This document shows positions 13,442 to 64,000 of a DNA stretch of 64,000 nucleotides, piece after piece. How positions within the stretch are numbered: the stretch's first letter is position 1; the number at the start of each line of letters is the position of its first letter. The notes beneath the pieces are model-generated. The model saw nothing but the letters and a program-made list of their open reading frames with translations. It ran no database searches and was not told the DNA's origin. The DNA is from Geosiphon pyriformis uo1 (taxonomy: Eukaryota > Fungi > Glomeromycota), in NCBI GenBank assembly GCA_016748015.1, contig JAAOMT010000678.1, positions 352,389 through 416,388 on the forward strand. Direction: 5' to 3'. The position numbers were made by a program, and so were the translations under genes.

Positions 13442-13449
13442 TCAGTGAT

Positions 13450-14051
13450 TTAGTTTGAAAATTGTTGAAATTTTAGTTCTGTAAGCTTTCTAATGTATTG
13501 AATTTTTATTGGATGAAGTATTGGATTTTGTAGGACGTTTTCACAAGTGTTGAATAAATCATAGAATCTAAATGCTGCTCTAAGTTTGTAGTGAGTGTTT
13601 GTTGGTCTAGCTGCTGTCTTGATTCATTGTGAATTTGTTTTTGTATAGCTTCAGAAGTGCTGTTGGTTGCTTCAAGTTCCAGTTTTCGTTCATAAAGTGT
13701 TTTTTTAATATAAAAATATCTATATATAAGAATATGTTTATTGTTCTGTTCATTGAAGAATAGTAGAAGTTTTTGTTGAATTGTAATATTTGGTAAAATG
13801 TCAATAGGAGCAGATAAAAGATTTTCTTTTAGTACTTGCTTTAAGAGTTTTGGTAATTGATTTCCAGAGTAACTTCTTGTTTTTCTTCTATAAAGATGAT
13901 AATTCTGAGAATTATTTACTACTGGGGCTGTGGTTTCTTTTTGAATATAATTAATTTGACTTCCATTAATTGTTATAGATAAGTCAGAAAGTGTTTTCAA
14001 GGCTAACATTAATTTTTGGGATTTTTGTTGAATATTTCGAGGAATAATCAT
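13450..14051 (-). pseudogene. ORF3 of family B (unknown function, one frameshift)
   Basis: ATG at 14051. LSITINGSQINY, YRYFYIKKTL and, in the shifted frame, AAFRFYDLF..LQNP..IRKLTELKFQQF align with family A ORF3. Confidence 0.75.
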
Positions 14052-21321: not shown

Positions 21322-22296
21322 TATTACCAGAAATTTTTGGTCTCTTTTTTTGGATATTGTTAATGTTGATTTGTTATGAATTTATATTTTCAGGAAGTAG
21401 TTGGACCTCCAGTAACTGAATTTATCTTCAAATTATCTCCTATAATTTGAACTGCTGGGTTTATAAGTAGAATGGCCAATTCTGTGCCAGTTATTTTGTG
21501 TAGTTATGTTGTAGTAAATGTTAACTTTTTCCCAAAAATTGCTTGTCTGGAAGCTCACTAAAAATGTGTAGTTACTTTGCTGTGAAAGTCAACTTTTCTA
21601 CAGGAATCTCATCTGTAGGCTATCCTAATAATTATAATAAGAAAATAAAAGGAATGTAAAAGAAATGTAATTTTATCAAAAGAAGTGTTTTTTGTCCAGG
21701 CCTGGAATCACTAACAGATTACTGAAATTGGTAGCTAATCAATTTCAAAATGTTAGTTGTGTTGAGAGAATTTCAAGTGTAATAATTTAAAGAATTTGTT
21801 TTTCGAATAGTTAATTTTTATTTGAGATATATAAAAGGTAATTTGTTCTAATTAAGATATCTAAAGTAAGATACTATGGTAAGATACTATGAGAAGATAT
21901 TATGAGAAAATACATTTTCTTGGAGAAAAAAGCTCTTTTTTTATACAACTTGTTGTAGTACTAATCTTTGAATTTGCATTTTTTTTTTTGCTACAATTTG
22001 GGTAAACTAATGATACATTTTGGTAAATTACAAGTTATTTCACTGAAATATTGATTATTTTGGCCAATTTTCATTAATTTCGGCAAATTTTGACTATGTT
22101 AAATGGTTCAGAGTATTGTGTAATTTAATCATCTTAACTTCTATAGTACAAATCGGATTATTGCTTGAGTAATAATATTTGATAATTTGATTAACTAATA
22201 AGTAATAATCAAAATAATAATAATATATGCTAATTAATAATAGAAATTATGAAAATAACTTCATGCTAATTAATAGCTAAAATTCTACTGGTAACA
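21322..22296 (-). repeat. 5' LTR of B1 (975 bp)
   Basis: TATTAC (decayed TGTTAC)...GTAACA ends; homologous to 32975-33965; PBS at 21304-21319. Confidence 0.92.
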
Positions 22297-32974: not shown

Positions 32975-33965
32975 TGTTACCAGTAGAATTTTAGCTATTA
33001 ATTAGCATGAAATTACCCTTATAATTCTTATAATTAATTAGTATAGTAATATCATTTCAAATTATCATTTATTATTTAATCAATTATCACATATCACGAT
33101 TCAATTAAATAATACAATTAGTATGACAGAAAGTAGAATGATCAAATTACACAATACTCTGAACTTTGTAACATTCTAAAATTCACCGAAATTTACAGAA
33201 ATTCGCCGAAATTTATAGAAATTCGTCGAAATTATGAATAGTTCACCCAAATTAATCAATAGTTCAGCAAAATAACTTGTAGTTCATTAAAATATATCTT
33301 TAGTTCGCCAAAATTTGAGCAAAAAGAAAAAGTGCAAGTCCATAGACTAGTACTACAACAAATTGTATAAAAGAAGAGCTTTTTTTTTCAAGAAAATGTA
33401 TCTTACTTTAGATTTATCACTTAGAACCATTCCTATACACAAAAAAAAGAAATAAATATCAAATAATTCGAAAAACCAAATTCTTTAATTATTGCACTTG
33501 GAAAATTTTCAAAACCCAACTAATGTTTTGAAATTGATTAGCTACCAATTTCAATAAACTGTTAGTGACTCCAGGCCTGAATAGAAAACGTTTTTCTTGA
33601 TAAAATCCTATTTTTTTTACATTTTTTTTATTTTTCTTTTCTTTTTTTATTACAATCATTAGGGTAGCCTACAGACAAAATTCCTGTAGAAGAGTTGACT
33701 TTCACAGCAAAGTAACTACACATTTTTAGTGAGCTTCCAGACGAGCAATTTCTGGGAAAAAGTTGACATTTACTACAACACAACTACATAAAGTAACTGG
33801 CAAGGAATTGGCCATTCCACTTATAAGCCCAGCAGTTCAAATTATAGGAGATAATTTGAAGATAAATTCAGTTATTGGAGATTCAACTACTTCTAAAAAA
33901 TGTGAATTTGTAATCAACAGACAGTTACAACATTCAAGAAAAGAGACCAAAAACCTCTAGTAACA
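32975..33965 (+). mobile_element. Solo LTR, family B (991 bp), inserted in the A3 integrase
   Basis: TGTTAC...GTAACA ends. Flanks CCAA and CTGA both derive from an ancestral CCGA. The integrase sequence ESVA|xFIH*DL resumes after it. Confidence 0.92.
33178..33315 (+). repeat. ~19-21-bp tandem repeats with a TTCGCCGAAAT core in U3 of LTR-B
   Basis: Units include aattcaccgaaat, aattcgccgaaat, aattcgtcgaaat, agttcacccaaat and agttcgccaaaat, upstream of TGTATAAAAG. Confidence 0.75.
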
Positions 33966-34862: not shown

Positions 34863-35492
34863 ATGGAAATTATCAACAATATCCATATACTAACACAACA
34901 ATTCTTTCAACTGATCCAACAACAGAAGATAGAAATTACAATTAATCAACAAACCATCAGATACAAAAACACAAAAAAGAAACCACAAGATAAAATACAA
35001 AGAAAAACAGAAAACACTATTGAAAAAATAATTACAAAGGTGAAAGTAACAATAGAAGCACAGCAAAAAGTCATTCAATATTTAGAGTTGATAATAAAAA
35101 CATGGAATTAGTGAACACAACAATTTCCAAAAAACTTTTGTTACTTTCACTTGAGACAATACATAAATATTCAGAACTTATATATAGATAAAACAAAGTA
35201 ATTATTTGACACAGAAATATTACAACAACTTGAACAATTTGTGAGAAAGAACAATATAATCACACAAGCATGAGCCATCTATTGATTACAAATTGGATTT
35301 CAAGACTGGCCAAAAATTTTACTTAATCTAGTAATAGACACCATTACTGTCAACCAAATGGGAAAAATAACCAATGCCCAATTTGAAAAATTACAGAACA
35401 AAATAACTCAAGTAATTTTCAAAAAAAAAGTCCAAAAAATACTCAAAGACAGAGAATTAGAATTAGGAGATCTTGATAGAGTTCAATATTAA
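34863..35492 (+). pseudogene. ORF3 of family A (630 nt, 209 codons plus stop, unknown function)
   Basis: ATG in an A-rich context after the IN stop; the TAA overlaps the PPT. Other copies are 630-633 nt, or 623 nt with a deletion. Confidence 0.85.
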
Positions 35493-38215: not shown

Positions 38216-41200
38216 TATGCAACTTTTATGTTTAAATTTAACATAATAAAAACTACAAAATTAATCAACAAAAATATAATAATAAGTATTAATCTTAAAA
38301 GATTAGTAAATAATTATATAAATTAAACAGTAATTAAAAAATCTTAATAAAAATATTAGTAAAAATTATATATATTATATTATTTAAATTATGAATAATT
38401 AAGTTAATCAAAATATAATTTGTAAAGCTATAATAAAAAACATTAATAATTTTAATAATTAAGATTAAACTAATTTTTCAACAGCTATATAGTTTATTTT
38501 TATTAAAAAAAATAGGTTATATAATTAAAAATAATATTAACAAATTATTATAAAATATTAAAAATATATATAAAGCTTTGTTTTATATATTTTTAATAAA
38601 ACCAACTATATATAATTTATAAAAATCTTTAAAATTAATTAATAAAAAAACATATATAATTATTTGTTTTAAGTTTAAAAATAATTTGATGATAATTTTA
38701 TTTGCTATTTTAGTTTTTAAGAAATTTATTTAAAATAAACAAACTTAAAATTATTTTTTTGTCTAATGTATAAAAAATTTGGTTATGTTTAATTTACATA
38801 TAATACTAATATTTTGTTAAAATCTAAAGTTAAGACCAAAAAACATTTTTTAGATTTAGATAAATATAAATTTTTTGTTATTTATATTAAAAAAACAACT
38901 TTAATTACTTAATCAATCTTTTTAATAATTTGTTTTAAAAACAAATAGCTAGTAATAACTTTTTTGGTGTTTTTTTTAATTTATTTTTTTATAATATTTT
39001 TTTAGTATTATTGTTTTTTTTTATTAATTGTTTTTTTTTATTGATTGTTTTTTTATAAAATATTTGTTTAAATATTCTTAAATATTTTTTGAAATTATTA
39101 ATAAATCAGGTTTTTAATATTTTTTGTAAATTAAATTTATTTCTTTTTGTATCTTTTTTTATTATCATGTTATATTATAATTGTAATTTTTTTTAGTTAT
39201 TATAAGTTTAAATATAATTGTAAGTATTTTAAATGTGTTTTTTTTTAGTTAATATTATTAATAGTTTTTTGTTGTTAAATTTTAATAGTTTAAAAGTTTT
39301 TATTGTTAAAATTAGTGGTTTAAAAATCAATATATTAGTAAAAAGTTTAATAAATATAATTTTAATAAGATTAAATTATTTGTGTATTAATTTTGGGGGG
39401 TTTTTTTTTTCTTAATAATTAGTTTTAATTAAAAAATTGTTATATATATAATATTAAGAATATAAATTTTTTTACAAAACAAAATAATATTGTTTATTGG
39501 TATAAAGAAAGTAATAGTCTTATTTTTATTATAATAAAAATTAAATTAAATTATAGTATTAAGTTTTAAATTATAAACAAATTTAAAAAAATTTACATGT
39601 TTATATCTAGTTTAAATTCGAATTTTCTAAATTTAGAATTATTATTATTATAAACAATAATATTATTAAGCATATTTATAAAGTTTTAAAGATATTAAAT
39701 TAACTTTTATTAATTTATTTATTATTTAAAAATAGTTTTTTAGTTTTAATATTAGAATTAAATACTAAACTTTTTTAGTATATATTTAAATTAAACTGCT
39801 ATTATTAACTTAATTATTATTAAAACAATTAATAAAAATATTTTTGTTATTTTGAATAATAACTTTAATAAAAATAAATTAAAGTATAATATTAGTTTTA
39901 AAAAATATTTAAATTTAAATTTGGTTAATTTTTTTTAATAACTTATTTGTTAAAATTACAATTTAAAAAAACTTGTATAGTATTAAAAAATAATTAATTT
40001 TATTTTGGTTTTTTTTTAGTAATATTATGATTATTTATAATGTTTATAATATACAAAAGTTTTTCTTATAAATTACAATATTGTAATAATTTTTGTTAAT
40101 TTAAGTGGTTTTTAAATATATAGTTATTTATTTTATATAAACAAACCAATAAAAATCATTAAAAATTTAAGTTTAAAAGTATTAATAATTCTAAATAGAT
40201 TAAATTTAGAAAAGTTTTTTTGTTTTAAACTATAATTATTTTGAATACTTTTAAAAAATCAAATTTAATTAGTAATTTAAATATTATATAAGATTATTTA
40301 AAAACATTATATATTTTATTGCTAATTATATGTTTTTTAAATCTTAATATAATAAATTTTTATATACAAAAAACTGTTATATATTGTATTTTTATAATTT
40401 AAAGCTATTAGTTTCTAAGATTTTTAAATTATTTGTTTTATATTTAAGTTTTAATCTTAATTATATTATATATAAATAGTTAATTTTGAATTTTTTAAAA
40501 ATTTTTGTAATTTAAATTTTGGTGTATAATAAATTTAGATTTGAAATTGTTAAATTAATACTATTTAAGATTAAAAAAAATTATTATTTTTTAAAGTTTT
40601 ATAAATTTTATAAAATTAAGTTAAATAAAATTAATATAAGAATAAAAAACATATAAAAAATTTTATTAATAATAAATGTCATATAATTTACACCATTTTG
40701 AAATGTTTTTTTTTACAAAATAATCTTGAATTATTTAATTATTTCTAATAATATTAAGTTATTTATTAATTTAATTATAAAAAATTAAACCAAAAAACAT
40801 ATCATGTTTAACAAATATTTATATGTTTTTTTAATTATATTTATGATATTGTTTTTATTAATATTATAATTAAATTTAAATAAAATAAATTTTTATATAG
40901 TAAAGTTATTAATTTGTTTAATATTTTAAATAAGCTTTAGAAATATTGTAATAAATATATTGTTAATTTACTATTAAATTTGTTAAATTTTTGTTTAATA
41001 TTAAAATTTGTTTTTGTTTAATAAAAAAAATTTAAGTATTAATAATCTTAAAATTTTATAATTAAAAAAATATTTTAATTAATTTTTATTTAATTGTTTT
41101 AGTTAAGACTACCAAAAAAATTTTGTTAAAAATTTTATTAAATTGTATTTTAACTGTTTATAATAAGTTTAATATTTTTTAAAAAAACAACTTTTTAGTT

Positions 41201-42526
41201 TTAAAAAACATTTTTATTTTTTACAAATTTTTGCTATAAATTAAGTTATAAAAAATGTCTTAAAAAAATCATAAATTGTAATTGGTTTTATAAAATATAT
41301 ATAAAGCATATAATTTAGTTAATTAATTCTACTTGAAAAATAATTTACAAAAAATTATAATATGTATTAAATTTATAACTAAAACAAATTAAATAAAAAA
41401 TTAGACTGATCTTATGTTTTATTTAACTGTAAGTATTATTAATAATACTATTTAAATTAACAATAATATATTATTATTTAATAAATTTTTAATATTATAG
41501 GTAAATTTTTTAAAATTAATAATATTTTTAATTAATACTAATAAAACTACAGCTATATTTTTTAACTAATAAATTATTAATGTCTCTTTGTTTATTAATA
41601 AATTATTGATTATAATTACTAAAAAAAAAAAATTACATAAATATATTAATATTTTTTTGTTAATAAACAGTTTTTTTAAGTCAAATTTAATCAAAACTTA
41701 TTTTAATATTAAATATTTTGCAAATATAATTTAAAAAAACTGTTTTAGACAAATAATTTTCATATTTAGTTTTTATTATTTTGTAATTAATTGTTAATTA
41801 CAGATCTTAATTTAGTTTTGTTTTTAAAAATATTTGTTAAAAGTAAAATATAATAATTTAAAAAAACTTAAAACTAAAAACTAATTTTCCAAAAAACTTT
41901 TCAAATAAAACTTTATATTATTTTTTTTGGTATGATTTGAGCAGATTTAAGCTAAGAGTAAAATTATGTTATTATTGGTTTTTTAATACTTTAAATATTA
42001 TTAGTTAGTTGTTTAATTACTAATTTTTAGATTATAAATTATAAATTAAGTCTTTAAAAATTTATTACAATTTTTTGTTAAGTTAAAAATCAGATTAATA
42101 AAAAATTTTTTAGTTAAAATGATCAGAATTTTTTTGAATTATAATATTAATTTAGCAAATTTTCTGTTTATAATATTTTATATAATAGATAATATTTTTA
42201 TATTAAATATTTTAAGTACTATACTGTATTATAAAGTAATTAGTTTATAAAAAAAATTTAATGTAACTTTTAATAAACAATTTATTAATAAAAACAGTTA
42301 AATTTTTAATTTAAAAACTTTTTGTTATTAAAAAAAACTAAATTTAAAAAGTTTTATGTTTTATTAATTTAATATTATTGTTAAATTTTTTTAAGTTAAA
42401 GATTCAAACATGTTTGTTTTATTTATTGGTTATAGTTTTAATTGTTAAAATATATATAGTTTGAATTGTTTTTAAGTAATTAATAAATATTTAGTAAAAA
42501 TAAATTTATTTATTATAAGTGTTTTT

Positions 42527-42645
42527 TTTATTTTATTTTATTTTATTTAATGAGTGCAGTCCAACCACTACCTAAATACATAAGATCAAACAGGACCCTA
42601 AATTAAGTGTGGCTCATGCTCTTTCTACACGTGACCAGCCACTCG
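42527..42645 (-). mobile_element. Tail-only LINE or SINE-like retroposon (~119 bp) with an (AAAAT)n tail
   Basis: GC-normal island homologous to 46075-46176 and 44338-44447. TSD AGTGTTTTT at 42518-42526 and 42646-42654. Confidence 0.8.
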
Positions 42646-43274
42646 AGTGTTTTTATAAATAATTTATTGAAAATTTAAATTTACATAAAATAATCAATAA
42701 TATTTTAATATTTTTTAAAAATTTAAATATAAGTATTAATATTCAAATTTTTGGTTTAACTTTATTAATATTGTCAAATTATAAATTATTTTTTTAATAC
42801 TTAAATATATATTAGTATTTAATATTATAAAAATTTATTTTAATAATTAAACTGTTTTAAACACTTGTGTTTTTGAGCTTATTTTGAGATTATTCGACTT
42901 TTGTAATTATTGTTAAAAAAAAAAAAAACAGATTGTTAATTTTATTTATAAAAAAAACATTTTAGTTATTTGGTCTAAAATTAAAAACCACTTTGATATT
43001 ATTATTAATAAATTGCTAATATAGTTTCTTATTTATCTTTGTATTTTTTATTTTAATTTATAAAAAAATTTTCAAACTGATAATAATAATATTTTATTTA
43101 CAATATATATTAAACAGTATATTATATTTAATAAAAAATTAAACCAAGTATTAATAAAAACAGTTTATAAACAATTATCTATTATTATTTAAAAGTATTT
43201 ATATAATAAATATTATCTTAAAATTTTTTGTTTTTATTGTAAAAAAATGAAGTTTTTAAATTATGTTTTTATAT

Positions 43275-43823
43275 TATTATCAGAGATTTTTGGTCTTTTT
43301 TTTTGAATGTTGTTGTTATTGCTTTGCTGTTAATTCCTAATTATTAGAAGTTATTAAATCTTTAATAACTAAATTTATCTTTAAATTATCTCCTATAATT
43401 TAAACTATTGGGTTTATAAATAGAATGGCCAATTCTGTATTAGTTATTTGTATAATTACTTTGTAATAAAAATCAATTTTTTTTCAGAAAATGCTTATTT
43501 AGAAACTTACTAAAAATATGTAATTATTTTGCTATAAAAATTAACTTTTTACAGAAATCTTGTTTGTAGACTATTTTGATATATATATTTTTTGAAAAAA
43601 AATAAAAATATAAAAAATATAAAATAAAAAAATTTTTTTAAGAAATTTTTTTCTGTTTAAACTTAAATTACTAACAAATTACTGAAATTGATAGTTAATT
43701 AATTTTAAAATGTTAGTTAAAATTTGAAATATTTCAAGTCAAATAATAATATATACTAATTAACAATAGAAATTATAAAAATATTTTTATATTAAATAAT
43801 ATCTCAAATTTTTATTAGTAATA
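43275..43823 (-). mobile_element. Decayed, internally deleted solo LTR of family B
   Basis: 43275-43739 matches 21322-21778; 43741-43823 matches 22211-22296. Confidence 0.85.
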
Positions 43824-45039
43824 AAATACAAATTATATACTATAATATATATAGAGTTATTAATAAATCTAGTTGAATTTTAAAAGTTATTTATAAATGT
43901 TTTGTTTTTATTATCTTTAATTTTACAAATTTTATCTTTTTATGTATTTAATAATACTTTATATATTGTTTTTTGTAAAAGTTTTGTTTTTAAAATTTGG
44001 TTTATTAAAATTATATTAGTTTTTAAAAATATTAAATTAGTCTGTTTATATATAATTAATTATATATAATAATTGATATCAAATTACAAAAAAAAATATG
44101 ATTATATAAAACTAAATATAGAATTACAATAAAAAAAATAATCTAATTAATTATAATAAAACTGTTTTATATAGTTTATATAGTTTATTAAATAAATTGT
44201 CTTTTAAAGTAATTTATATGTTTAATATTAAAAAAGATTTTTGTAATTGATTTTGGTTTATACAATAAGTATTAATTTTTTTTTAATTTAAATAATAGTA
44301 TTAGTATTTATATAAATGTATAGTATAATTTTAATTAGTTTAAATAATTGATTATATGTAATAAATATATAAATTATATTTAATTATAAATATTTAATTT
44401 GTTTATATATGCTAAACTATAATTAGACTGTATTTATTAAAAAAAAATTTAATTTAATTATAATACAATTATAAAAATTTTATAATTTATATTTTTTCTA
44501 TATGTAATTAATTATTTAAATTAATTAAAATTATATTATGTATTTACAGAATTAAAAACTTTTGTATATTTACAAAAACTATTATAAATTACTTAGTTTT
44601 AAAAATAAATTAAACTTGATTATTTTTTTAATTAAATCTATTACTATTATTGTTAATTTTTTATTTTTTTTATTTAAATAGTTTATTTTTATTAATAGTT
44701 TTCTTATTAATAAACATATTTAAATTCTTTTTTATTACTATATTTTTTATTAAATTCTGTTTAAAAAATTATTTATAACTTATATTAAAAATAAAACTAA
44801 AAAATTATTAATACAAATTTATTTAATTTTTTTATTAACTTACTAATTTGTTTTATAAAGTTAGCAAAATTGCATTTTAATTTCAGATTTTTTAAAACAA
44901 ACAAATAAGATTTAATGTTTATAAACAAACCAAAATTATATATAATACTAAAAATCATAAATTATTTACTATTTAAATTTATGAATTAATATATATTTTA
45001 TTAAATTATTTATTTTTAACTAATATTAATAATATTTAT

Positions 45040-45320
45040 TTAAAAAATTTAACAGCATTAAAACAATAACTTTTAATTATGACTATTAATAAAGTATTAA
45101 TTTTTTATTTTTTATATATTTTATTTTTTTGTTTTGTTTTGTTTTGTTTATATTAATTAATTAATACAAAAATAAATATAAAATTAATTTATTAATAAAT
45201 AAGATTGTTTATTAAAAGAGTAAAAAATGCCAAAATAAATTAATTATTATGCTAAAAAAATGAAACATTAAGTATTGCTGTTATTACAACTTAAATTTCT
45301 GTTTATTATACAAAAAACTT
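45040..45320 (+). repeat. Heavily decayed LTR-A-related remnant
   Basis: caataacttttaattatgactattaa and tctgtttattatacaaaaaact match two LTR-A landmarks in the correct order. Confidence 0.55.
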
Positions 45321-46059
45321 GAATATTAAATCTTTAAATATATTAAAACTTTTAAATTTAATCAACAAATTATAATACCAATTTATAAACTAATTATTTA
45401 TACAACTATCTATAATAATATTATTCTTAGTTTCTAAAAAGTTTTTTTAAATATAAGATTTTTATTTTTTTAAAAAATTTAATTATTTTTATTAAGTAAT
45501 TTATTTATTGAATTTTTTTATAAAAAACAAAAGTATTAAAGTTTTGTTAGTGATATTATTTATTTTGTTTCTTAATAATAAAATATAAATTGGGTTTAAC
45601 TGTAATTAAATTAATTTATATTATTTAATTATAATTAATAAAGTCTAATATTGTTTTTTTGTTTTTGCAGTAAGTTATAATTTATTATAAAATTAAAATT
45701 TTTAGATTATATATTTTTTTTTATTAAACTATTATAAGATTAAATTATTATAATAATTAAATTATTAATGTTTTGTTTATACTATTTTTGGTTATTTTTA
45801 GATAAATTATAAATTTTTAATAGAATAAAAAATAAATAAATAAATAAAATTAATATTTTATTAATTATTATAATTAAAAATAATTAAATTAATTTATAAA
45901 AATTTTAATAACATATATAAATTATATTTGGCTTTGAATATAAAAAAACAAGTAAATTTTAATAACAAAATTTAAGACTTAAAATATGAATTTTAATTTA
46001 ATTATAAACAATAATATTTTTTAAATAATAGCAATAATATTGTATTTGTTAAAATTTTT

Positions 46060-46342: not shown

Positions 46343-49300
46343 TATTATAGATAATTATTTGGGATCTCAAGCAAATAACAAACTCATAATTTGGTGCTTA
46401 ATAGCTAATATGATGGTATAATCTTTAAAGATTTTCATGATCTAAAGGTTTTATTAATCTGAAAGTTTTGGGTTGGAGTTTTTTGTATAATAGACAGAAA
46501 TTCAATAATTGTTTTATTAGTAGCCTTCTGGAATTGTAATTCTATCAAATTTTTTTCTTCAGTGTAGTGGCTGGTTTATTCTAGCAGTCATGTCCTTTTG
46601 ATAAGCTATCTTCAATTTCCGAGTTCTCTATCCTTATTTTTGGGTCTTTTACCAGACTATTCTTAATGTTAATAACTTAATGCTTAATTCTTAATTAATT
46701 AGTAAACAACAAAAAACAACAAAAAAAAATAAAAAAAATAAAAGAAAATATAGAAACTGAAACCAAGGCAATTAAGTTAATATTCTATTAATAGCCATAA
46801 TTAAGAGCTATTGTTCTAGTGTGATTAAGTATAAGTTACTATTAACATAAAGTGTTGATAATAAACAATTGAATTAATATAATTAATAAATATATTTATT
46901 AATAGTGTGAATGTATGAATACTAATTAGAAAATAGAACTCAGATGTTTTCTTCTTTTTGCTTCTAATGCTATTATTATATATACATAATTGAGATTCTT
47001 TAATTCCTTAATTTTTCACACCAGAAATCCTGAAATTCCTGAAATCCTGCAATTTTTTATATAAGAATTCTGTAATTCTGGAATCCTGCAATTTCTTTAA
47101 GAAGAATTCTAAAATTCTCTATTTACTATGTTTACTTCTAATTGGCTAATTTATATGTTAATATAATTCCTATATTTTATGAGTAATATTATTCTCTCCT
47201 TTTAATATTGAGCTCTATTGAGATCTCCTAATTTCTCTAATTCTTCAAATTGACTTATATCTTGAACTTTTTTTTCGAAAATTACTTGTGTTATTTTAAT
47301 CTGTAATTTCTCAAATTGGGTATTGGTTATCTTATCTATTTGATTAGTAATAACTGTATCTATTTTTGAATTGAGTAGTATTTCTAGTCAGTCTTGGAAT
47401 TCAGCTTGTAATCAATATATTGCTTGTACTTGTGTGGTTAGATTGTTTTTTCCCACAAATTGTTTAAGTTGTTGTAGTATTTTTGTATCAAATAATCACT
47501 TTGTTTTGTCCATATATAAGTTTTGAATGTTCAAGTATTATTCCAAGTAAAAATAACAAAAGTTTCTTAGAAATTGTTGTGTTCACTAGTTCCAAGTTTC
47601 TTTGGTCAATCTTTGGTATGGTGTAGTTTTTGTTTGTATTTTTATTGCTATTTTTACTTTTAGAATTATTTTGTCAATGATGTTTTCTGGTTTTTTCTGT
47701 ATTTCATATTGGGATTTCTTCTTTGTATCTTTATATCAAATGATTTGCTGATTAATTGTAATTTTCATATTTTGTTGTTAAATTAGTTGGAAAAGTTGTT
47801 GTGCTAATGTGTAGATATCATCAGTAATTTCCATTTTTTTCTGGTATCTTTTGTCATATGTTGATTCTTTATATAGAGTTTTGATGTCTTAATTTAACAT
47901 GTTTGTATTGATAATTATTATTGGTTCTAGATCTTGTGGAATTTTATTTGGTTTGACTAGTATTTTCTGTACTCCCGATTGTAGAATATTAGTAATAGAT
48001 AATAATGTTATACTGGTTTTAGTTAATCTCCATGTGCTATTTTGGCTAAAATTTTGTTGTTTTATCTTAATTTATAAGCTCTATTTTCAAGAATTTCTTC
48101 TATGTAAAATGATCTGTCCCATTTGGGATTAAATTTTCTACTCCATTGTTTTTTTACTTTGGTATAATGTAAAAGTACTTTGTTTTCAATCTTGAATTCA
48201 ACTGGTTTATCTGGTAGTTGGTTATTATATCTTTTTTTTTGTTTTTCTTGTGACTTCTGAATATTATTAACTGTTTTTCACCATTTGTTTTTTAGTGTTT
48301 TTATCAAGTCATATGTTCTTCTCAACAATGTTTCTTGAAAATTCTCTTCTGTTATTGGTTTTGCTAGATATGTTTTGACTTTTATTTCGACTAATATTGT
48401 TATTGTTCTATTATATACTAATTCAAATAGTGTAGTTTGTGTAGTGTCTTGCTTTATTGTCTGATAAGCAAATAATACTGATAGTATAAACAAATTCTAT
48501 TTATTTTGGTTTTTTTGGCTGATCTTGACTATTGCTTCATACAATATTCTATTAAATTTTTCAATTAAGTTATTGGTTTGTAGATAATATGGTAATGACA
48601 ATAGTCTTTTGATTTCAAATTTTTGACTTAATTCTACTAATATTCTGTTTACAAAGTGAATTTTTTGGTTAGATAATAATTCTTTTGGACATCCATGTTA
48701 ACAAATTAAATTTTGATGAATGAATTTGGCAATGGATTTTGTATTTGTTTTTTGAATTGCTTTTGCTTCTGACCATTTAGTAAGATAATTCATAACTATT
48801 GTGATATATTTATTTCTTCTACTGGTTATTGTTAATAGTCTGACTAAGTCAATTCTGATTCAATTGAATGGTTGTCTCACTTTGATTGGTCTTAATAGTT
48901 TGCTAGATCTTGTTTCTCCTTTTTTCTGATATGCATTACAATTTTGAACATATTAGATAATATTTAGATACATTAATAGCCAATAATATTTCTTTCTGGT
49001 TCTTTCCATAGTTGCTTCTTTATGAAAATGTCTTGCTATCAGATCTGAGTACATATTGTATAGTATTGTTTCTTTTTTTGCTTCTGTGATTACTTTGAGT
49101 GGTTAATCTGAATCTTTTTTGTTTTTCTGATATAATATATTTTAATAAATAATAAAATATTTTAATTGTTGTTTAATAGTGTTTTATTTCTTTGAAGATA
49201 ATTTTTTTTAAACTACTGGGTATTAATATAGTGTTGAAGTTGTTGATATTTTTGTGTATTCATCTTTTTGTTATATTTTTGGGTTAAAATGTTCTTAGAT

Positions 49301-51518: not shown

Positions 51519-52366
51519 TGTTATAGTGATTATTTGGGGTCTCAAGTTAAATAACAAATCCATAACTTGGTGCTCAAAAGCTATTTGTGTTGATAATAAA
51601 CTGAAGGTTTTGGGATCTGAAGGTTTTCCAATGAGTCCTTTGTATAATGGACAGAGATTCAATAGTTGTTTTATTCATAGCTTCCCAGACTCGCAAGTCT
51701 GTCAATTTTTTTCTCAGCTTGGTGGCTGGCAATCCTCTGGTAAGTAATCCATATCTTCTATACATGTCCTACTCATTCACAGAGGTCTTTTACCAGACAA
51801 TCCTTGACGTCAGTAATCAGCACTTTTAATCAATTGGTTAGTGCACAATAACAAAATCACAGAAAATAAAGAAAATAACAAAAAATAAAGAAATGTAAAG
51901 AAATAAGCCAAGATGTTTGGTAGATTAGTATTCTGTCAATAGCCATGATTAAGAGCTATTGTTTTAGTGTGGTTAAGTATTAATTATTATCAACATGAAA
52001 TATTAATAGTGATGAGTGGATTGAGATATAAAATAATTATTTATTTGATGATTTTGTTTCTAGATTAAGGATTCTGTAGTATTAATTCTGTCTTTTTTGT
52101 TTCTAATACTACTGCTATATATACATATTTAAGATTCTTCAATTCCTCGATTCTTTACGACAAGAATCCTAGAATTCCTGGAATCCTGTGATTCCTTTGA
52201 GAGGAATTCTGAAATTCTGGAATCCTGTGATTCCTTGTTAGGGAATTCTGAAATTCCTGGAATCCTGGAATTCTTGAGAGGAATCCTGGAATTTCACATT
52301 TACTACACCTACTTTTGATTGGCTAATAATTATATTAATATATTTCCTATATTTCTATAAGTAACA
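51519..52366 (-). repeat. 3' LTR of A5 (848 bp)
   Basis: Direct repeat of 60768-61599, preceded on the minus strand by the PPT AAAAGAAGAGAA. Confidence 0.95.
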
Positions 52367-52379
52367 TTATTCTCTTCTT

Positions 52380-53002
52380 TTAATATTGAGCTCCATCGAA
52401 ATCCAACTCATTTAATTCCTCTTCTTGAAGTATTTCCTGGACTTTGTTTTCGAGAATTATTTGTATTATTTGGGTCTGTAATTCTTTAAATTGAGCATTG
52501 GTGATCTTTCCCAATTGATTACTGATAACCATATCCATTGCTTTGTTAAGTAATATTTCTGGTCTATTCTGAAATGCTGTGTGTATTTGGTATATGGCTC
52601 GGGCCTGTGTGGATAAGTTGTTTTTTCTCACAAAATGTTCTAATTGTTGTAGTATTCTTTTGTCGAATAATCACTTTGTTTTATCCGTATATAGATTCTG
52701 GATATTTAGGTATTGTCCCAAGTAAAAATAACAATAGTTTTGTAGAAATTGTTGTATCCACTAATTCCAAGTTTCTTTAGTCAACTCTTGATATAGTGAC
52801 TCTTTTGTCGATTCTCTTATTGTTAATTTTACTTTCATAATGATTTTGTCTACTGTATTTTCAGTTTTCTTCTGTGTTCTGGGTTGTAATGTCTTTCTAG
52901 TATTTTGATATCGAATGGTTTGTTGATTGATTGTAATCTTCATTTCCTGATTAATTGAAAGAGTTGTCATGCTAGTGAGTAAATGTTGTCTGTAATTTCC
53001 AT
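52380..53002 (-). pseudogene. ORF3 of A5 (7-nt deletion near the 5' end)
   Basis: Fragments 52761-52970 and 52380-52631; ATG at 53002; stop at the PPT. Confidence 0.85.
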
Positions 53003-53056: not shown

Positions 53057-54439
53057 TCAATTTAACATGTTGTTGTCGATAATCATGATTGGTTCCAGAT
53101 CTCGTGGAATCTCATCTGGTTGGACTAGTATTCTCTGTACTCCTAATTGTAGAATATTACTGGTGGATGATAATATTATACTGTAGTATGATTTTAGTCA
53201 ATCTCTATGTGCTACTTTGGTTAAAATTTTGTTATTCAGTTTTAATTTGTAAGCTCCATTCCCTAGAATTTCTTCTATGTGAAATGGTCCATCCCATTTG
53301 GAGTCAAATTTTCCACTTCATTGTTTTTCCGCTTTGGTATGATGTAAGAGTACTTTGTCTCCAATCTGGAATTCAACTGGTTTGTCTAATAGTTGATTAT
53401 TATGCCTTTTTTTCTGTTTTTCTTGTAACTTTTGAATATTATCAGCTGCTTTTCTTTGTTTGTTTTCCAATGTTTCTATTAAGTCATATGTTCTTCTCAG
53501 CAATGTTTTTTGAAAATTTTCTTCTGTTATTGGTTCAGCTGGATATGTATTAATTTCTTTTTTTACTGGTAATGTTGCTGTTCTACTATATACTAATTCG
53601 AATGGTGTTGCTTGTGTAGTATCTTGCTTCATTGTCCGATAAGCAAATAATACTGATGGTATGAACAAATCTCATTCATCCTGGTTTTCTTGACTGAGTT
53701 TGGCAATTGCTTCACACAATGTTCTGTTGAATCTTTTGACTAATCCGTTGGTTTGTGGATGATATGGTGATGATAGTGGTCTCTTAATTCCGAATCTTTG
53801 GCTCAATTCTGTTAATGTTCTGTTCACAAAATGAGTTCCTTGGTCTGATAATAATTCCTTTAGACATCCATGTCGACAAATTAAATCTTGATAAACAAAT
53901 TTGGTAATGGATTCTGCATCCGCTTTTTGAATTGCTTTCGCCTTTGGCCATTTAGTAAGATAGTCTATGGCTACTGCTATATATCTGTTTCCTCTGCTGG
54001 TGATTGTTAATGGTCTGACTAGATCAATTCCAATCCAGTTAAATAATTGTCCCACTTTGATTGGTTTTAATGGTTCACTGGGTCTTGTTCCTCCTCTTTA
54101 CTAACAAGCATCACAATTTTGAACATATTAAATGATGTCTGGGTACATTGATGGCCAATAGTATCTCTTTTTGGTTCTTTCCATGGTTGCTTCTTTGTGA
54201 AAATGTCTTGCTGTTGGATTTGAGTGCATATTGAATAATTTTGTCTCTTTTTCTGGCTCTGTAATTACTCTGATTGGCTGATCTGGATTCCTTCTATTTT
54301 TTCGATAAAGTATATTTTGATGAGTGATAAAATATTTTGATTGTTGTTTGATACTCTTTTATTCTGTTTGAGATAAATTCTCCTTGAACTGTTGAGTGTT
54401 TATATAATGTTACAGTTGTTGATATTTTTGTATGTTCAT
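53057..54439 (-). pseudogene. Stand-alone integrase ORF of A5 (461 codons; HHCC, DDE and GPF; no chromodomain)
   Basis: Starts MNIQKY. Motifs H..H..YYWP..CDAC, IGIDL, LLSDQGTHF, NGLVKRFNRTL and KWDGPFHI. 1383 nt in a single frame. Confidence 0.92.
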
Positions 54440-54500
54440 CTTTTATTATATTTTCGTTGATATTATTCTGGTTTTGTTATATTTTTGGGTTGAAATGTTC

Positions 54501-57500
54501 TTAGATTTGTTTATTTATGACAAACCATCAGCATTTCTGTTGTCTTTTCTCTTTTTATAATATATAGTATACTTATATAGTGTGAGTGCCATTTTCCATC
54601 TCCAAATTCTTGTTTTTGAAGTGATATTAATCCTTTGTGATTTGTGTATACTTCAAACTTCTGATTCAAGTATTCTTTCCATTTCATGACTGCCCAGTAT
54701 ATTGCTAAGTGTTCTTGTTCCAGTGTTCCATAGTTCTTTTCGGCTGGTGTTAAACTTTTGCTGGCATATACTACTGAATGTTCTCTGCCATCTGGTCCTC
54801 TCTGAAATAGTACTGCTCCCAATGCTTGGCTGGATGCATTGGTGGTGATGATGAATGGTTTGCTGTGATCTGGATAGATCAGTACTGGAGCTTAGATGAG
54901 CTTTCTTTTCAGAATATCAAAAGCTTCTTGTTGACTTTCTGTCCATTCATATTTTGTATTCTTGTTTTGTAGTTGGTTGAGTGGCTGCGCTATTTTGGAA
55001 AAGTTCTTGATAAAACATTGATAGTAGCTAGCAAATTCCAAGAATGATTTCAGTTCTGTCATATTGGTCAGCACTGGAAAGTTCTTTACTATCTCTATTT
55101 TCTCTGGATCTGTTTTGATGCTGTCTTTGCTGACTATGTGTCCCAAGAATTTTAGTTTTGTCTTGCTAAAGAAGCATTTTGTTGCATTTAACTTTAGTCC
55201 TGCTCTTCTTAGTCTTTCGAACACTTATTGAAGATGATGAAGATAATCATCAAATGTTTTTGAAAATACATTGGTGTCATCCAAGTATACAACTACTGAT
55301 TTCCACAATAAGCCAGTATAAACAATTTTCATTAGCCATTGGAAAGTTGCTGGGGCATTAGTTAAGCCAAATGGCATTACTTTAAATTCGAAATTTTCTT
55401 CTCTAGTAGTGAATGCCGTCTTCTCTTTATTGGCCAAATTCATGGCTACTTGCCAGTAACTACTGTCTAAGTCTAATGTTGAGAACCATTTGTTCCCACC
55501 GAAAGCATCAAATAATTCCTGTATTCATAGAATTGGATAGCTGTCTCCATGAGTTACACTATTGAGTTTCCTGTAGTCTACACAAAATCAGATTTTTTCA
55601 TTCTTCTTACAGATGAGTACTACTGGTAATGACCATGGGCTCATTGATGGCTGAATTAGCCCATTGTCAAGCATTCAGTTTATCTCTTAATGGATGATCT
55701 CGTGGCTAGCTGGTAGTACTTTGTATGCTCTTTGTTTAATTGGCATTGCATCTCCAGTCTTGATCTGATGCTAGATAATATTAGTTTGGCCAAACTCATT
55801 TTCGTTGGCAAAGATGTTATTAAAATTGTTGAGCAACATTTTGAGCTGCATACGTTGTAGTGGGTCTAGATTTCCTATGTTCATTTGTTTTAATTGTTTT
55901 GGTTGAAGTAAATAACATTCATCTTGTCCATAGATTGTTTGTGATGTAATGTCAACATATCCACAAAGTTGTGGAAAGTCTGGAATGGGGTTTGGTGGTT
56001 GGTCTTCTATTTCTGTGGTTAAATATCCAATGTTGATTCTTTTTGGTACATTGATGATATTGCCAGTGTTGTTGTAGATGGGAATTTTTATGTGGCTATA
56101 GCTTTTGGCTGGTATGTGGAGATTGATCAGCCCAATCTCTCTTGATTCACAAAGGTTTGCTTCAGCTTCAAAAATCTGTTCTTGCTCCTTTTTCTTCCTT
56201 TTTATTGCTAGCATATACTGGCTATATGGTGAAATGGAAATAGCTTAACCGGTTGAGATAATTTCTCCTTGGCCAACAATTTTTTCCTCTGCTATATTAA
56301 CTGGTACATCTATTCTACCTGTTGACCCAAATCCCTGTATCTCTCTTGCTGTTATTTCTAATTCTTCCCTGTTTCCCACTGACATTAATTGAGCTATTTT
56401 AACCAGAGGCAGGAATATTGTCTGTGCTATCTTTTTGTTTGGTTCTATAATATAGGCCTTTTCTGAGTCATTTTGTAGCATGGCGATGATATTTCCTATA
56501 TATTCCACATCATTTATTCCTCCTCTTATATTAATCTCTCTTCTTGCTAAACTACTCCGGGATGCTAGTTGAACTATTGTTGTTGCTGAAATTTCCAGCA
56601 CTATTTTCAGATCAATGCAGGTGCGCAAATGTGGTTCCAATTTGATAACATCTTTTCCAGGATATTTCAGATCAAACCCTACATCGATATCATGTGCTCA
56701 TTCTGGCATAATGCCTTCGCCATTGTCACTGTACTATTTCAACTCCTGTTCTTTGGAGAGATCTAGTAGAGCAATGTATTGTTCGTAGTTAGGATCGAAG
56801 TCTGAATCATTGATATTTTCGTTGCCATATTGTGCAGAGCTGGAACTGGTGTTTTCATCATTGTCATTGTCAAGGTTTGAATTGGGATTGTAAACTAATT
56901 CTGATTCTGATATGCAGCTGTTAATTGGTTCCTCTTCCTTGGGGATTGTGTAGATCATGCGTGGTGGTGGATTGTAGATGAGGTCACACTCATCACAATA
57001 TTGGAAGTTACATGGAATTAAACAGTGGTAACATAACCTGGTGTTTATTTCTCCCAAGTGTTGTTCCTGTTTCTTTCTTGTGGGTGCTAATTCCTGGTAA
57101 TGTTTATGGAATTGCTCCAGATTTAGAAAATTTATGACTGGTTCTGGGTCCCAGTCAAGTTCTATGGGCTCTGGAGAATTGTTTTTGATTTCTTTGATCT
57201 TTTTGGGTGTTGCTCTTTCTATTTTGGTAATTGCTATTCTCCAAATTTTGTCATCATCATGTGGACAACTGTCCAGTTGCTACATGGCTCTTTTCCAGGC
57301 TGCCTCTATTGGGGTTTCTTTCCTTATCCAGTCACTTATTAAAATTGTGTATTGACACAATACATCGCATATTCTTCTACATTCAGGAATGTCATTCCAC
57401 ATCTCTTCATCTAGTAGGATCTTTCCACAAGCAAGACAAGATTGGTTATCCTATTTTTCTTGCCTCTTTGGTCACCCAAAGCATTCGAGTAGGCATGAAC

Positions 57501-60500
57501 AACAGTAGAACTTTGTTGTAGTGTGGTATTCCTTATTGTTACCACAGCATGCACCCATTGATGACAGTTTCTTGCCATAATTGACGCATACAAGTCTTGG
57601 CCATCGATAATTGGATTGTTGTGGAGTGTGGTGGGTGTAGGAATTATAAATGGTGACAGTTGGTGGCGTTCTTTCTTTTTTTTCTTTTTCTTTTCCCTTA
57701 TCTTTGTTCTATTCCCAACTTGAGGCTTCTTCTTGTTTGTTGTCAATCCAAATCAAATCATTGGTTTCCCAGGTAAGTTTGTTTGTTTGCTTTCCTTTCC
57801 CATTGTCATCCCAAGAGAGTATTGGTGGCAGCTTGTTGTGCTCTTTGTCAGCCCATGACACTTGGTAGGCTTTCCAGGTAGGTTTTGGTTTCTCTTCCTC
57901 GAAGTCGATTAGTGGTGCTGTGGTGTTGGTAGTCTTAAAGTGGCCACACATTGCTGGTACTTGCATGTGTTGTCCGTTCTGGCTGAGTTAAAGCTTTTGG
58001 GTATTCCAGTCCAGAGTGGTGTTCGTCTTGGACAGCCAGTCATTACTAACTAGAGCTTGATATTGGGTAGCTTCTATGATGAGTACTTTGATTGGTACTA
58101 TGATGCTGTTAATTTCGATTGGTAAGTCATCGATTTTGCCGATTAGAGTCTTGATTGCTCCATTAGCCATGATGATTCTGGTGCTAGCAGCTCAATCAAC
58201 TCAGCAACCTAATTGATCCATGAGTTGTTGTGTGATGATGCTGCCTGCTGAACCACTGTCAAAAATTAGTTTGATGGGATGGCCATCAATTTTCACATCA
58301 GTGTACATAGCGGTAATTGGCTTTTTTTTCAGTGTGGCTCTACTAAATAATGGCATGGTTGACAGTTCCTCAAGTTCGAATGAAAAAATGGCATCCAGAG
58401 ATTTGTCTTCCATGATTGTGGCAGGTGGAATGTTGCTGGTAGATGTTTGTCTGAGTTCCTGGTTGTTGGGTGTGGCATTTTCTGGAATAACCAGGAGACT
58501 TAAATAGTTTTGGGAATTCAGGTGTTGGGTGGTGCCAGTTTCCGAATTCCAAGAACAGAGTTCTGAGCTTTGGTGAGAGGAATTGGAGATCGGTTGATGA
58601 ACAACTATCGCCAATCTCCAATTTTGAGCAATTCTGGATCTTGGATTTCCTGATGTCATTGTAGCTAAGTTTTAGAGCAGTGTTTGGATTGATGGTTAAG
58701 TCTGATAAATTATTTGGGGCGGTGGCTGATAAATTACTGGAGGCTGCTGTTAATAAATTGCCGGTGGCTGTGGTTGATAAACTGGAATTTGATATACTAG
58801 TAGTTAATAGATTGATTGCTGCGTCATTGGCAGGTAAGTATTTTGATATTGGTCTTGGTTTTGATTTGGATAATGATTCAGAGTTTGGAACTGGCAATCA
58901 GGGTTTCTGTATTGATTTTCCGATTGTTGGTTGCTATAAGTATGACAATTAACTCGAATATGGCTTTGTTTACCACAGTTGTGGCAGACATGCGTTTCTG
59001 GCTGCCACGGCAGACTAGGTGCTGTTAAGGATAATGGACGTGATTGATTTTGGAAACAATTCATGTTTCCTGAATTATGGCGTTGTTGTGGTGTTTGATA
59101 TATGGCGCGATTGTTAGCTAAATACTCCTCTAATTTCTGATTAATTGATTCGCTAAAATGTTTTAATTTGGAATCCAATTCAGATAATCTATTTATTACT
59201 AGGTTTACTGCTTAGGCATGGTTGGCTTTTAACTTAGCTGCTTCAAAATTTCTGGCATGTGTAACTGCAGTAGGGAGGTCAACTGGATGCATTGGGCATA
59301 CTCACTGAAGGAAGTTACTATGCAAATTTCTAATAAATTGGTTTAAAATCTGTGGTGCTGTAAAATAGTCAGTTTGAATTGCTTGGATCTGGTACAGGTT
59401 TCTATGGAAGCATTCTAAGTAAGTAGTGACTACTTCAGTATCTTCTTGTTTAATAGTGGTGAAAAGGTTGGCTAACTTGTTGATGCTATTATTGTTGCTG
59501 AAATATCTTATGAATTCTGTCTTAAAGTCATTGAAGGTTTGAGATTTGACAGCTAGACTTTGATACCATGCATCTGTGGTGTCCCTTAGAAAGTATGGGA
59601 TGGCTTGAAGTACTTGAGTGTCATTCCACCCATTCACAGTAATGGCTTTCTCTATATCATTTAGCCATAGTTGCATGTTGTCTTCTTTGCTGGTAAAGTT
59701 GTCAAGTTTTGCGATTGGTACATAGACCATTGGATTTAAGTTGGGTTGTTGTGGTGGCTGTTGAAGCAGTTGTTGTTGTACTGGTTGTTAGAGTGGTAGT
59801 TGAAATGGCTGTTGTATGGATTCAGCTATTGGATTAATTGGCAGTTGCTTGATGACAATTACTGGAGATAAGTTTTGCTGATTAATTAATTCGGGGTTTG
59901 GATTGTTCTGCCTTTGATGATTCGGAGTTTCGATTTCCGAATTTTCTAAATTTAGATTTTGCTGAGCTTGAAAATTTGGGGTTTCAACTTCTGGGTTTTC
60001 AGTGATCAGGTTCTAGTAAGTAAATTCTTGATCTTCCGATTCTTCCTCTTCTTCCTCAGATAGTTCCCATGGGGTAACAGTTCCAAAGTCTGGCTGAGGT
60101 GGTGGTGATCAAATTCTTGATGGCGTTGGTGATTGTGATTTAAATCCTTTGAAGTATTTGCCATATGGTCCTAATAATTCTGTTTTCTTTTGTTTACTTT
60201 GGAATAGAAATTGTCCAAATGTTGATGCCATGTTTGATGTGGACACACTTATTGATAAAATGTTAATGGTGCTTCTGGGTGTATAGTGATAAGATGGATT
60301 GGTTGAGGATTCAACTTTTGTTTTCTTCCAAGTGGGTGGTTGTATTCTTTTAGGTATTACTGCTGATGTTTGTAGTTTTTCTTTGCCTTTATTAGCATAT
60401 GTAATTAGATATCTTTGTTGAGTGTGATGTTCAATTTTTTGGTTGATCTCAGTGATAATGGATGCAAAATTATGATTTGTTGGTAGATTGGTGTTTTGAA

Positions 60501-60765: not shown

Positions 60766-60767
60766 AA

Positions 60768-61599
60768 TGTTACAGTAATTATTTGGGGTCTCAAGTCAAA
60801 TAACAAATCCATAACTTGGTGCTCAAAAGCTATTTGTGTTGATGATAAACTAAAGATTTTGGGATCTGAAGGTTTTTCCAATGAGTTTTTTGTATAATGG
60901 ACAGAGATTCAATAGTTGTTTTATCTATAGCTTCCCAGATTTGTAAGTCTGTCAATTCTTTTCTCAGCTTGGTGGCCGGCAATCCTCTAATAAGTAATTC
61001 GTATCTTTTGTATGTGTCCTACCCACTCGCAGGGGTTTTTTACCAGGCAATTCTTAATGTTAGTAATTAGCACTTTTAATCAATTGGTTAGTGCACAATA
61101 ACAAAATCACAAAAAATAAAGAAAATAACAAAAAATAAAGAAATGTAAAGAAATAAGCCAAGGCATTTGGTAGATTAGTATTCTGTCAATAGCCATAATC
61201 AAGAGCTATTGTTTCAGCATGATTAAGTATTAATTACTATCAACATGAAATGTTAATAGTGGAGAGTGAATTGAAATATGAAATAATTATTTATTTGATG
61301 ATTTTGTTTCTAGGCTAAGAATTCTGTGATATCGATTCTGTCTTTTCTGTTTCTAATACTACTGTTATATATACATATTTGAAATTCCTCAATTCCTTAA
61401 TTCTTTATGACAGAAATCCTGGAATTCCTAGAATTCTGCGATTCTTTTGAGAGGAATCCTGGAATTCTGGAATCCTGTGATTCCTCGTCGGAGAATCCTG
61501 CAATTCCTGAGAGGAATCCTGGAATTTTATATTTACTATGTCTACTTCTGATTGGCTAATAATTATACTAATATATTTCCTATATTTCTATAAATAACA
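60768..61599 (-). repeat. 5' LTR of A5 (832 bp)
   Basis: TGTTAC...ATAACA ends, adjacent to the PBS and the TSD. Confidence 0.95.
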
Positions 61600-61944: not shown

Positions 61945-64000
61945 TATTACAGATGATTATTTGGAGTCTCAAAGCAAATAACAAACCTGTAACTTGATGC
62001 TCAATCAATTATAATGATGTTGATTTTTGAAGGTTTTCGTGATCTGAAGGTTTTGGTAGAGTTTTTTGTATAATAGACAGAGATTTAATTAATAGTTTTA
62101 TCTGTAGTTTCCTGAAACCACAGTTTTGTTAATTTTTTTCTTAACATAATAGTCAGTAATTCTCCTGGTAAGATATCTTCAATTCTGAGTGTCTATCTTT
62201 ATTTCTGGATTTTTTACTAGTGCTATATCCTGATATCAGTATCTCTGTATGTAAATCTTTTTAATCAAGTTAGCAAAATAACAATAAAAATAAAGCAAGA
62301 AAAAAAAATAAGAAAATAAGCCAAAGCAATTTGTATGTTAGTATTCTGTCAATAGTTATGATCAAAAGCTATTGTTTTAATGTAATTAAGTATCAATTAC
62401 TATCAACATAAAGTGTTGATAGTGAAGAGAGGATTTGAAGTAGTGAATAATTATTTATTTTATTTGTAATATAAAAGGTTGCTTAGATTAAATCTAAATT
62501 GAGAGATCTGTTTTTTCTATTTCTGACACTACTGTTATATATACATAATTGAGATTCCTCAATTTCTCAATTTTTTACACCAAAAATTCTGGAATTCTTG
62601 GAATTCTGTAATTTTTTTTGAGAGAAATCTTAAAATTCTAGAATTCTGTAATTCCCTGTACAAGAATTTTGAAATTCTTAGAATTTCACATTTACTACAG
62701 CTACTTCTGATTGGCTAATTTATATGCTAATATACTTCCTATATTTTATGAGTAACATTATTTCCTTCTTTTTAATATTAAGCTTTGTCAAAATCTTCTA
62801 ATTCTAATTCTCTGTTTTTGAGCATTTCTTGAACTTCTTTTTTGAGAATTACTTAAGTTATCTTGTTTTGTAATTTTTCAAATTGGGCATTGGTTATTTT
62901 TCCCATTTGGTTAATGGTAATAGTGTTTATTGCTGGATTAAGTAGAATTTCTGGTCAGTCTTGAAATTTGGTATATAGCCAATAAATGGCTCTTGCTTGT
63001 GTGGTCAAATTTTTTTTCTCCACAAATAATTCCAGTTGTTGCAGTATTGTTGTATCAAATAATTATTTTGTTTTATCCATGTATAAATTTTGAATGTTCA
63101 AGTATTGTCTCAGATAAAAATAACAAAAGTTTTTTGGAAATTGTTGTATCTACCAATTACAAGTTTTGATAATCAACTCTTGATATTGGGTGATTTTTGG
63201 TTGTGCTTTTATTGTCAATTTCACTTTTGTAATTATTTTGTCAACAGTGTTTTTTGTTTTTCTCTGTACTTTATCTCATGATCTTTTTTTGGTGTTTTTG
63301 TATTTAATGGTTTGTTGATTGATTGTAATTTCTATTTCTTGTTGTTGGATCAGTTGAAAGAATTGTTGTGTTAGTGAGTGAATGTCATCAGTAATTTCCA
63401 TTTTTTTACTGTTTTTCATTGTATCTATTATGTCTTTATATATTTTTTTGGTTGATCAACTTGACATGTTTGTGTTGATGATAATGATTGGTTCTAGATC
63501 TCATGGAATCTCATCTGGTTTGACTAGTATTTTTTGTACTCCCAATTGCAGAATATTAGTGGTGGATGATAATATTATACTGTAGTATGATTTCAGTCGA
63601 TCTCTATATGTTACTTTGGCTAAAATTTTGTTGTTTCATCTTAATTTATAAGCTCTATTTCCAAGAATTTCTTTTATGTAAAATGGTCTGTCCCATTTGA
63701 GATCAAATTTTTCACTTTATTGTTTTTTCACTTTAGTACAATGTAAAAGTACTTTGTCTCCAATCTTGAATTCAATTGGTTTATCTGGTAGTTGGTTATT
63801 ATGTCTTTTTTTTTGTTTTTTTTGTGACTTTTGGATGTTATCAATTGCTCTTCATCATTTATTTTTTAGAGTTTCTATCAAGTCATATGTTCTTCTTAAC
63901 AATGTTTCCTGAAAATTGTCTTCAATTATTGGTTCTGTTGGATAAGTGTTAACTTTTATCTCAACTAGTAATATTGCTGTTCTACCATATACTAATTCAA
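61945..64000 (-). mobile_element. Family A copy A6: 3' LTR 61945-62757, ORF3 62772-63401, integrase C-terminus
   Basis: LTR ends, PPT and a 630-nt ORF3; inserted into A4 and continues right of the window. Confidence 0.92.

Follow-up and report, generated by a model that had tools for sequence, protein, structure and literature searches.

A conserved accessory protein family encoded behind a separate integrase ORF in Ty3/Gypsy retrotransposons of Geosiphon pyriformis

The window analysed here, a 64,000-nucleotide stretch of the Geosiphon pyriformis genome, was found by self-comparison to be a stack of decayed LTR retrotransposons nested in each other, and Pfam searches recovered pieces of Gag, protease, dUTPase, reverse transcriptase (RT), RNase H and integrase (IN) from it. 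The elements discussed below fall into two families, A and B. The focal element, a family-A copy, lies on the minus strand and has both LTRs, the polypurine tract (PPT) and a flanking GTGT duplication (Table 1). Its domain order, determined using Pfam and, for RT, from the translation, is gag-PR-dUTPase-RT-RH-IN. By its LTR pair, PPT, target-site duplication and domain order it is a Ty3/Gypsy (Metaviridae-type) element. The two LTRs differ at 89 positions over 830 columns and, since 87 of these 89 differences are transitions, decay after insertion consisted almost entirely of C>T and G>A changes. Elsewhere in the window, an 8-kb stretch (38000-46000) with 9-14% GC and faint remaining LTR matches probably represents extremely deaminated old copies, and a solo family-B LTR (32975-33963) is inserted within the integrase of an A element.

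The integrase is encoded as an ORF of its own in 4/4 A copies examined for this junction, where the RNase H reading frame ends in a stop and the IN ATG follows 30-65 nt on. In the focal element this ATG lies 61 nt past the RNase H stop, and the integrase ends 54 nt ahead of the ATG of the next ORF, here called ORF3. Between protease and dUTPase, both families also carry a cysteine-rich stretch some 200 aa long (minus strand, 57283-57900 in A and 18202-18800 in B), which had no Pfam match at E≤0.01.

Table 1. Features of the focal element, of the other ORF3 copies in the window and of the integrase junctions. Positions are those of the window unless another locus is named.
Feature	Position	Strand	Remarks
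5' LTR, focal element	60767..61599	-	87.6% identity to 3' LTR
Gag capsid fragment	59302..59787	-	Pfam PF03732, E 2e-9
Aspartyl protease fragment	58201..58671	-	Pfam PF13650, E 1.5e-4
dUTPase, between protease and reverse transcriptase	56245..56697	-	Pfam PF00692, E 7.7e-16
RNase H end of pol	54501..54891	-	Stop at 54501-54503, common to 4/4 A copies examined
Integrase, own ORF, decayed	53057..54439	-	rve core 53672-54097
ORF3, focal family-A copy, broken	52380..53002	-	7-nt deletion near 52952; 3 premature stops
Polypurine tract	52367..52381	-	Begins inside ORF3 stop codon
3' LTR, focal element	51519..52366	-	TG...CA, then 4-bp target duplication GTGT
ORF3, family-A copy	34863..35492	+	5 premature stops
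ORF3, family-A copy	47202..47834	-	8 premature stops; one extra codon
ORF3, family-A copy	62772..63401	-	6 premature stops
ORF3, family-B copy	13444..14051	-	Residues 1-203 of about 235; frameshift near 13618
Family-B LTR start	22277..22296	-	Encodes final codons and stop of intact B-type ORF3
RNase H stop/IN ATG junctions, A copies	54439-54503; about 49260-49300; 32380-32450; 5960-6000		
RNase H stop/IN split, locus L003	772-801 of L003		Same as A copies

The original prediction placed a conserved ORF of about 209 aa behind the integrase in four A copies and a homologue in family B. The positions and lengths of the four A copies were all correct, as was the 7-nt deletion, which is private to the focal copy. 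The overlap of the A-family stop codon with the PPT was also borne out, the final two A's of the stop being the beginning of the purine tract. The description of these copies as open frames failed: none of the four is open (premature stops in Table 1), and codon 113 is a premature stop in every one. The proposed length holds for family A, in which a natural intact copy, P0001, has 209 aa and shares 83% identity with the focal copy across 190 aa; the true start of the family-A ORF3 is uncertain, because 7 of 20 alignment rows begin 10 codons upstream. It does not hold for family B, the intact proteins of which have 235-239 aa, or 221-225 aa if called from a later Met. For the B homologue in the window, relationship to A was supported by deep profiles, and the copy itself proved to be damaged twice: its frame shifts at about residue 145, and a deletion ends it at about residue 203 and takes away the PPT and the LTR start as well. 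Intact B-type ORF3 does not end at the PPT; its final codons are formed by the opening bases of the LTR, and this LTR-encoded tail ends 70 of 120 B proteins among the matches listed. Since the frame runs on across the PPT and into the LTR, the purine tract accounts in part for the acidic tail of the B-type protein.

Whether a gene had been maintained in these broken copies was assessed using transversions only, which leaves out the C>T sites that the original prediction had proposed to exclude from a dN/dS calculation. The four A copies form six pairs, which are not independent of each other; when these were pooled, pN/pS in the ORF3 frame, uncorrected for multiple hits, was 0.32 (bootstrap 0.20-0.53). 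The five remaining frames gave clearly different values (0.69-1.32), as did six frames of the LTR (0.96-1.31). The integrase C-terminus gave 0.23. Only two indels (7 and 3 nt) separate the four A copies of ORF3; the LTR has many 1- to 2-nt gaps. ORF3 is therefore a genuine accessory gene that purifying selection has acted on. Neither of the outcomes named beforehand as speaking against the original prediction, a ratio near 1 with random indel phases or a confident match to a characterised retroelement ORF, was observed. Synonymous transversions numbered 70 over 210 codons in ORF3 versus 28 over 181 in the adjoining end of IN. This approximately twofold higher density suggests either that subfamilies have recombined or that the 3' end of IN contains an RNA or DNA signal.

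Homology between the two families was not significant when only the window copies were compared (BLASTP E 0.51; HHalign 0.9%). With deep alignments, HHalign gave 95.7% (E 1e-8) over 188 columns, and all three motif pairings on which the original prediction had based the relationship appear in this alignment. Cross-searches with hmmsearch recovered 92/120 and 42/120 proteins at E<1e-3 among the matches listed, and shuffled or reversed controls yielded no matches. Mean A-B identity of ORF3 is 22%.

Protein searches returned 157 matches for the A query and 121 for the B query. The 120 matches listed for each were all hypothetical proteins of G. pyriformis, as were 27 of 27 longer matches. A first metagenome scan gave no matches. 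A full-library search gave 121 (20 of them looked up), which included two further Geosiphon subfamilies and the metagenomic proteins P0312, P0322, P0382 and P0383; the metagenomic rows aligned to A at 99.3% and to B at 99.6% in HHalign. P0377 and P0384 were treated as repeat-driven chance matches and were excluded from the alignments, and a quick ORF3 tree was used only for delimiting subfamilies. Judged by these profile comparisons, conservation of ORF3 extends over four Geosiphon subfamilies (A, B, C and D) and to metagenomic proteins. The idea that its core is a widespread domain of Glomeromycota host proteins was unsupported, as the 20 of 121 matches checked comprised 14 from Geosiphon and 6 with no taxon name. 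Hundreds of G. pyriformis gene models (within P0001-P0267) were observed to be pieces of retrotransposon ORF3, many of them chimeric with Gag, protease or dUTPase fragments.

Outside the window, one locus was informative for the gene order. L003, which holds P0322, has an RNase H stop, a separate integrase ORF, a 316-nt spacer and an intact ORF3 of 230 aa. This ORF3 crosses the purine tract into a B-like LTR start; the contig carries one end only, and the LTR was inferred from its start motif. The integrase C-terminus has an SH3-type match and no chromodomain. The expectation that ORF3 always lies 3' of a stand-alone integrase thus agrees with the one informative outside locus (1/1) and with the A copies in the window. 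A further locus, L004, has a partial ORF3 homologue. As the integrase and ORF3 each have their own ATG behind a stop, their expression would need subgenomic RNAs or re-initiation. The only match on a viral contig, at 7760-8545 of L001 (phrog_13678), is a phage protein encoded between portal-like and capsid-like genes; it has one short helical motif in common with ORF3 (HHalign 14%), a resemblance dismissed as a chance match picked out by its pattern.

The protein properties agreed with the original description of a helical protein that occupies the env position, between IN and PPT, and is not Env-like. The maximum 19-residue Kyte-Doolittle mean was 0.27-1.07 in all seven proteins examined, with no transmembrane segment that could serve as an anchor, and by hydropathy the N-terminus has no strongly hydrophobic stretch. 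Five of the seven proteins have a pI of 9.2-9.5 and a basic linker, and the number of cysteines is 1-3. Two structural models were considered. Model 1 was confident in its core alone (residues 74-196; mean pLDDT 60.9). The AF2 model of P0312, built from 36 diverse rows in an alignment of 20-37% identity, reached a mean pLDDT of 82.9 and a pTM of 0.68, and its confident core is all-helical. This model has a helix at 11-24, a hairpin at 29-42 and helices at 60-72, 88-96, 105-122, 129-144, 149-163 and 188-223. ORF3 is thus predicted to open with a short N-terminal helix and a beta-hairpin, which a basic linker joins to a compact helical core (P0312 60-215); the tail is acidic. Gly113, Arg158 and Phe163 are the majority residue in every subfamily and in the metagenomic rows, and Asn148 is conserved in at least 90%.

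Searches of Pfam, PHROGs and NCBIfam assigned ORF3 to no family past the cut-off or at a convincing E-value. There was no Env or movement-protein family match, and none in Pfam to GDSL esterase or DEDDy exonuclease, the confidently modelled ORF3 core being all-helical and not alpha/beta. Sequence searches of the PDB returned weak rows (importin-5, E 0.014), and a wider profile had nothing under E 0.97; tblastn against phages gave no match and the ESM Atlas no usable match for P0001. The original prediction had proposed AlphaFold plus Foldseek, and Foldseek returned no match at E≤0.001. A VIA structure search over 48,161 chains had no match at Z≥5, the best being Z 4.3. These fold searches barely covered the N-terminal hairpin, and the absence of a significant match does not make the fold new.

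Below these thresholds, several leads pointed in a common direction. ParB-type proteins, DUF1016_N, DUF3102 and DUF6192 form one group of helix-turn-helix families. ParB-family chains ranked 3, 24 and 27 of 48,161 in the structure search with the P0312 model, with Spo0J at Z 4.0 (rmsd 5.5, 95 aligned), ParB at Z 3.5 (rmsd 3.0, 59 aligned) and KorB at Z 3.4 (rmsd 4.4, 91 aligned), scores that are tied with those of TPR, GPCR and designed bundles. KorB reached Z 3.0 against model 1, and sigma-F ranked 8 (Z 3.8, rmsd 2.5, 56 aligned). DUF1016_N was the commonest Pfam match of B members (5/29, best E 0.0028), with a best score of 18.2 bits that is below the Pfam cut-off of 32.8 and confined to one B subfamily; it matched none of 15 distant homologues and no A-family protein. 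A direct HHalign comparison with nine natural YhcG N-termini gave a probability of 5-6% (P about 0.007). The score of 23.3 exceeded those of all 201 block shuffles (highest 20.2), and in a separate run one of 25 block shuffles scored 24.9 versus the observed 25.6. The link to DUF1016_N is a weak, sub-threshold lead. DUF3102 appeared in Foldseek at E 1.6 for model 1 and fell outside the top 50 for the better model, and DUF6192 scored 0.90 in the ESM Atlas. The Atlas also offered the phage RegA translation repressor and a viral coat protein, both at 0.92; these two leads share 136-138 of 256 features with the query, and the scores are uncalibrated for protein parts.

ORF3 may resemble the ParB/Spo0J/KorB proteins and DUF1016_N (the N-terminus of YhcG) in a three- to four-helix arrangement at about residues 84-210 of the model and in an aromatic-x-Ile-Gly motif ahead of the helices. 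It differs from ParB and YhcG in having neither the ParB CTPase domain nor the PD-(D/E)XK nuclease, and the scores are sub-threshold. Among the functions listed in the original prediction, the weak, sub-threshold structural and profile leads lean toward nucleic-acid binding by a helix-turn-helix, for anti-silencing or tethering, rather than a movement factor.

Our preferred, though tentative, reading is that ORF3 may be a DNA-binding regulator of its own element. It is the fourth gene after gag, pol and the separate integrase ORF in dUTPase-bearing Ty3/Gypsy elements and, like the integrase, would depend on a subgenomic RNA or on re-initiation for its expression. Once made, the protein would move into the nucleus and bind the LTR of its own element using a putative helix-turn-helix formed by helices 129-144 and 149-163, with Asn148 and Arg158 presumably on the reading helix. 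Purely by analogy, it may keep copies transcribed despite host cytosine-directed silencing, a step against which the heavy mutation of the window copies counts. A more specific version, which we consider doubtful, is that a fungal four-cistron retroelement captured a bacterial or phage helix-turn-helix domain of the ParB/KorB/YhcG-N type as a sequence-specific LTR binder against cytosine silencing or as a tether for the free integrase.

A DNA-binding fold would also suit a role in integration, with ORF3 acting in trans as a tether or cofactor between the free integrase and chromatin and so standing in for a chromodomain. ORF3 adjoins an integrase encoded as its own ORF, and the L003 integrase ends in an SH3-type match with no chromodomain. 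However, adjacency is no evidence of binding, and ORF3 has diverged far faster than its supposed partner (A-B identity of 22% versus 46-53% in well-aligned IN stretches), and we regard this role as rather unlikely. Slightly less probable again is binding of RNA for packaging, export, protection or suppression of RNA silencing, possibly in a particle with Gag. A basic, soluble protein would suit such a role, the unusual multi-ORF layout demands translational or splicing control, and the RegA and coat-protein leads point the same way; these leads carry the limits on shared features and calibration given above, and no RNA-binding fold was matched in the structure search. The env position invites the idea of a replacement for Env that acts in movement or in spread from cell to cell within coenocytic hyphae, but a protein with no transmembrane segment, 1-3 cysteines and no match to Env or movement proteins makes a very improbable candidate. 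Finally, all five ORF3 copies in the window are broken and the purine tract in part dictates the acidic tail, as might be expected of a non-functional remnant conserved through mutation bias or PPT/LTR constraint. This explanation is largely refuted by the frame-specific purifying selection, by intact full-length copies in several subfamilies and at L003, and by the confident fold obtained from an alignment of 20-37% identity, and we give it hardly any credence. The remaining probability goes to other roles.

Additional ORFs behind pol are already known in LTR elements (PMC2864245, PMC5408684, PMC11963269). Elements in a survey of fungal Gypsy elements have, as here, an extra ORF of unknown function, and PosPlaTy3-5 has its dUTPase between PR and RT, as here; the survey centres on chromodomain-bearing elements and, in the part of the text considered, assigns no family to the extra ORF and describes no stand-alone integrase (PMC2864245). 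LTR elements of bdelloid rotifers are also dUTPase-bearing with a non-Env ORF3 behind pol, but those ORF3s encode Env, small transmembrane proteins, a GDSL esterase or a DEDDy exonuclease, none of which is matched by the Geosiphon ORF3 (PMC5408684). In plant Retand elements, ORFs with a TRP28 domain lie between pol and the 3' LTR and have been proposed to be DNA-binding regulators of transposition; they are antisense, plant-specific and of another domain, whereas the Geosiphon ORF3 is on the sense strand and abuts or crosses the PPT (PMC11963269). VANC of Mutator-like elements is another fast-evolving transposon accessory protein and offers a functional analogy only, as it belongs to a plant DNA transposon and derives from MAIN-like proteins, and is not linked to ORF3 by any sequence or fold match found here (PMC13547354). 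No published description of this ORF3 family was found in the main texts searched, most subscription papers, the Geosiphon genome paper and supplements being outside the search. ORF3 represents a real, and on that search undescribed, family of accessory proteins in a Gypsy lineage with an unusual four-ORF layout, the presence of an extra ORF3 being itself of a known kind.

The family offers a confident model with no significant match among solved structures, and the intact natural copies (P0001, P0201, P0312 and P0322) make its function directly testable. If the doubtful capture of a bacterial or phage domain were true, the helix-turn-helix protein would play in a fungal retrotransposon the part that VANC or a viral transactivator plays elsewhere. 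For annotation of the G. pyriformis genome, hundreds of 'hypothetical proteins' are retrotransposon ORF3 copies rather than host genes. LTR elements make up 41.2% of this genome, and the paper that reports their expansion does not use the words 'integrase' or 'envelope' in its main text (PMC11952901). A conserved, previously undescribed ORF3 gene could help explain the LTR expansion in G. pyriformis.
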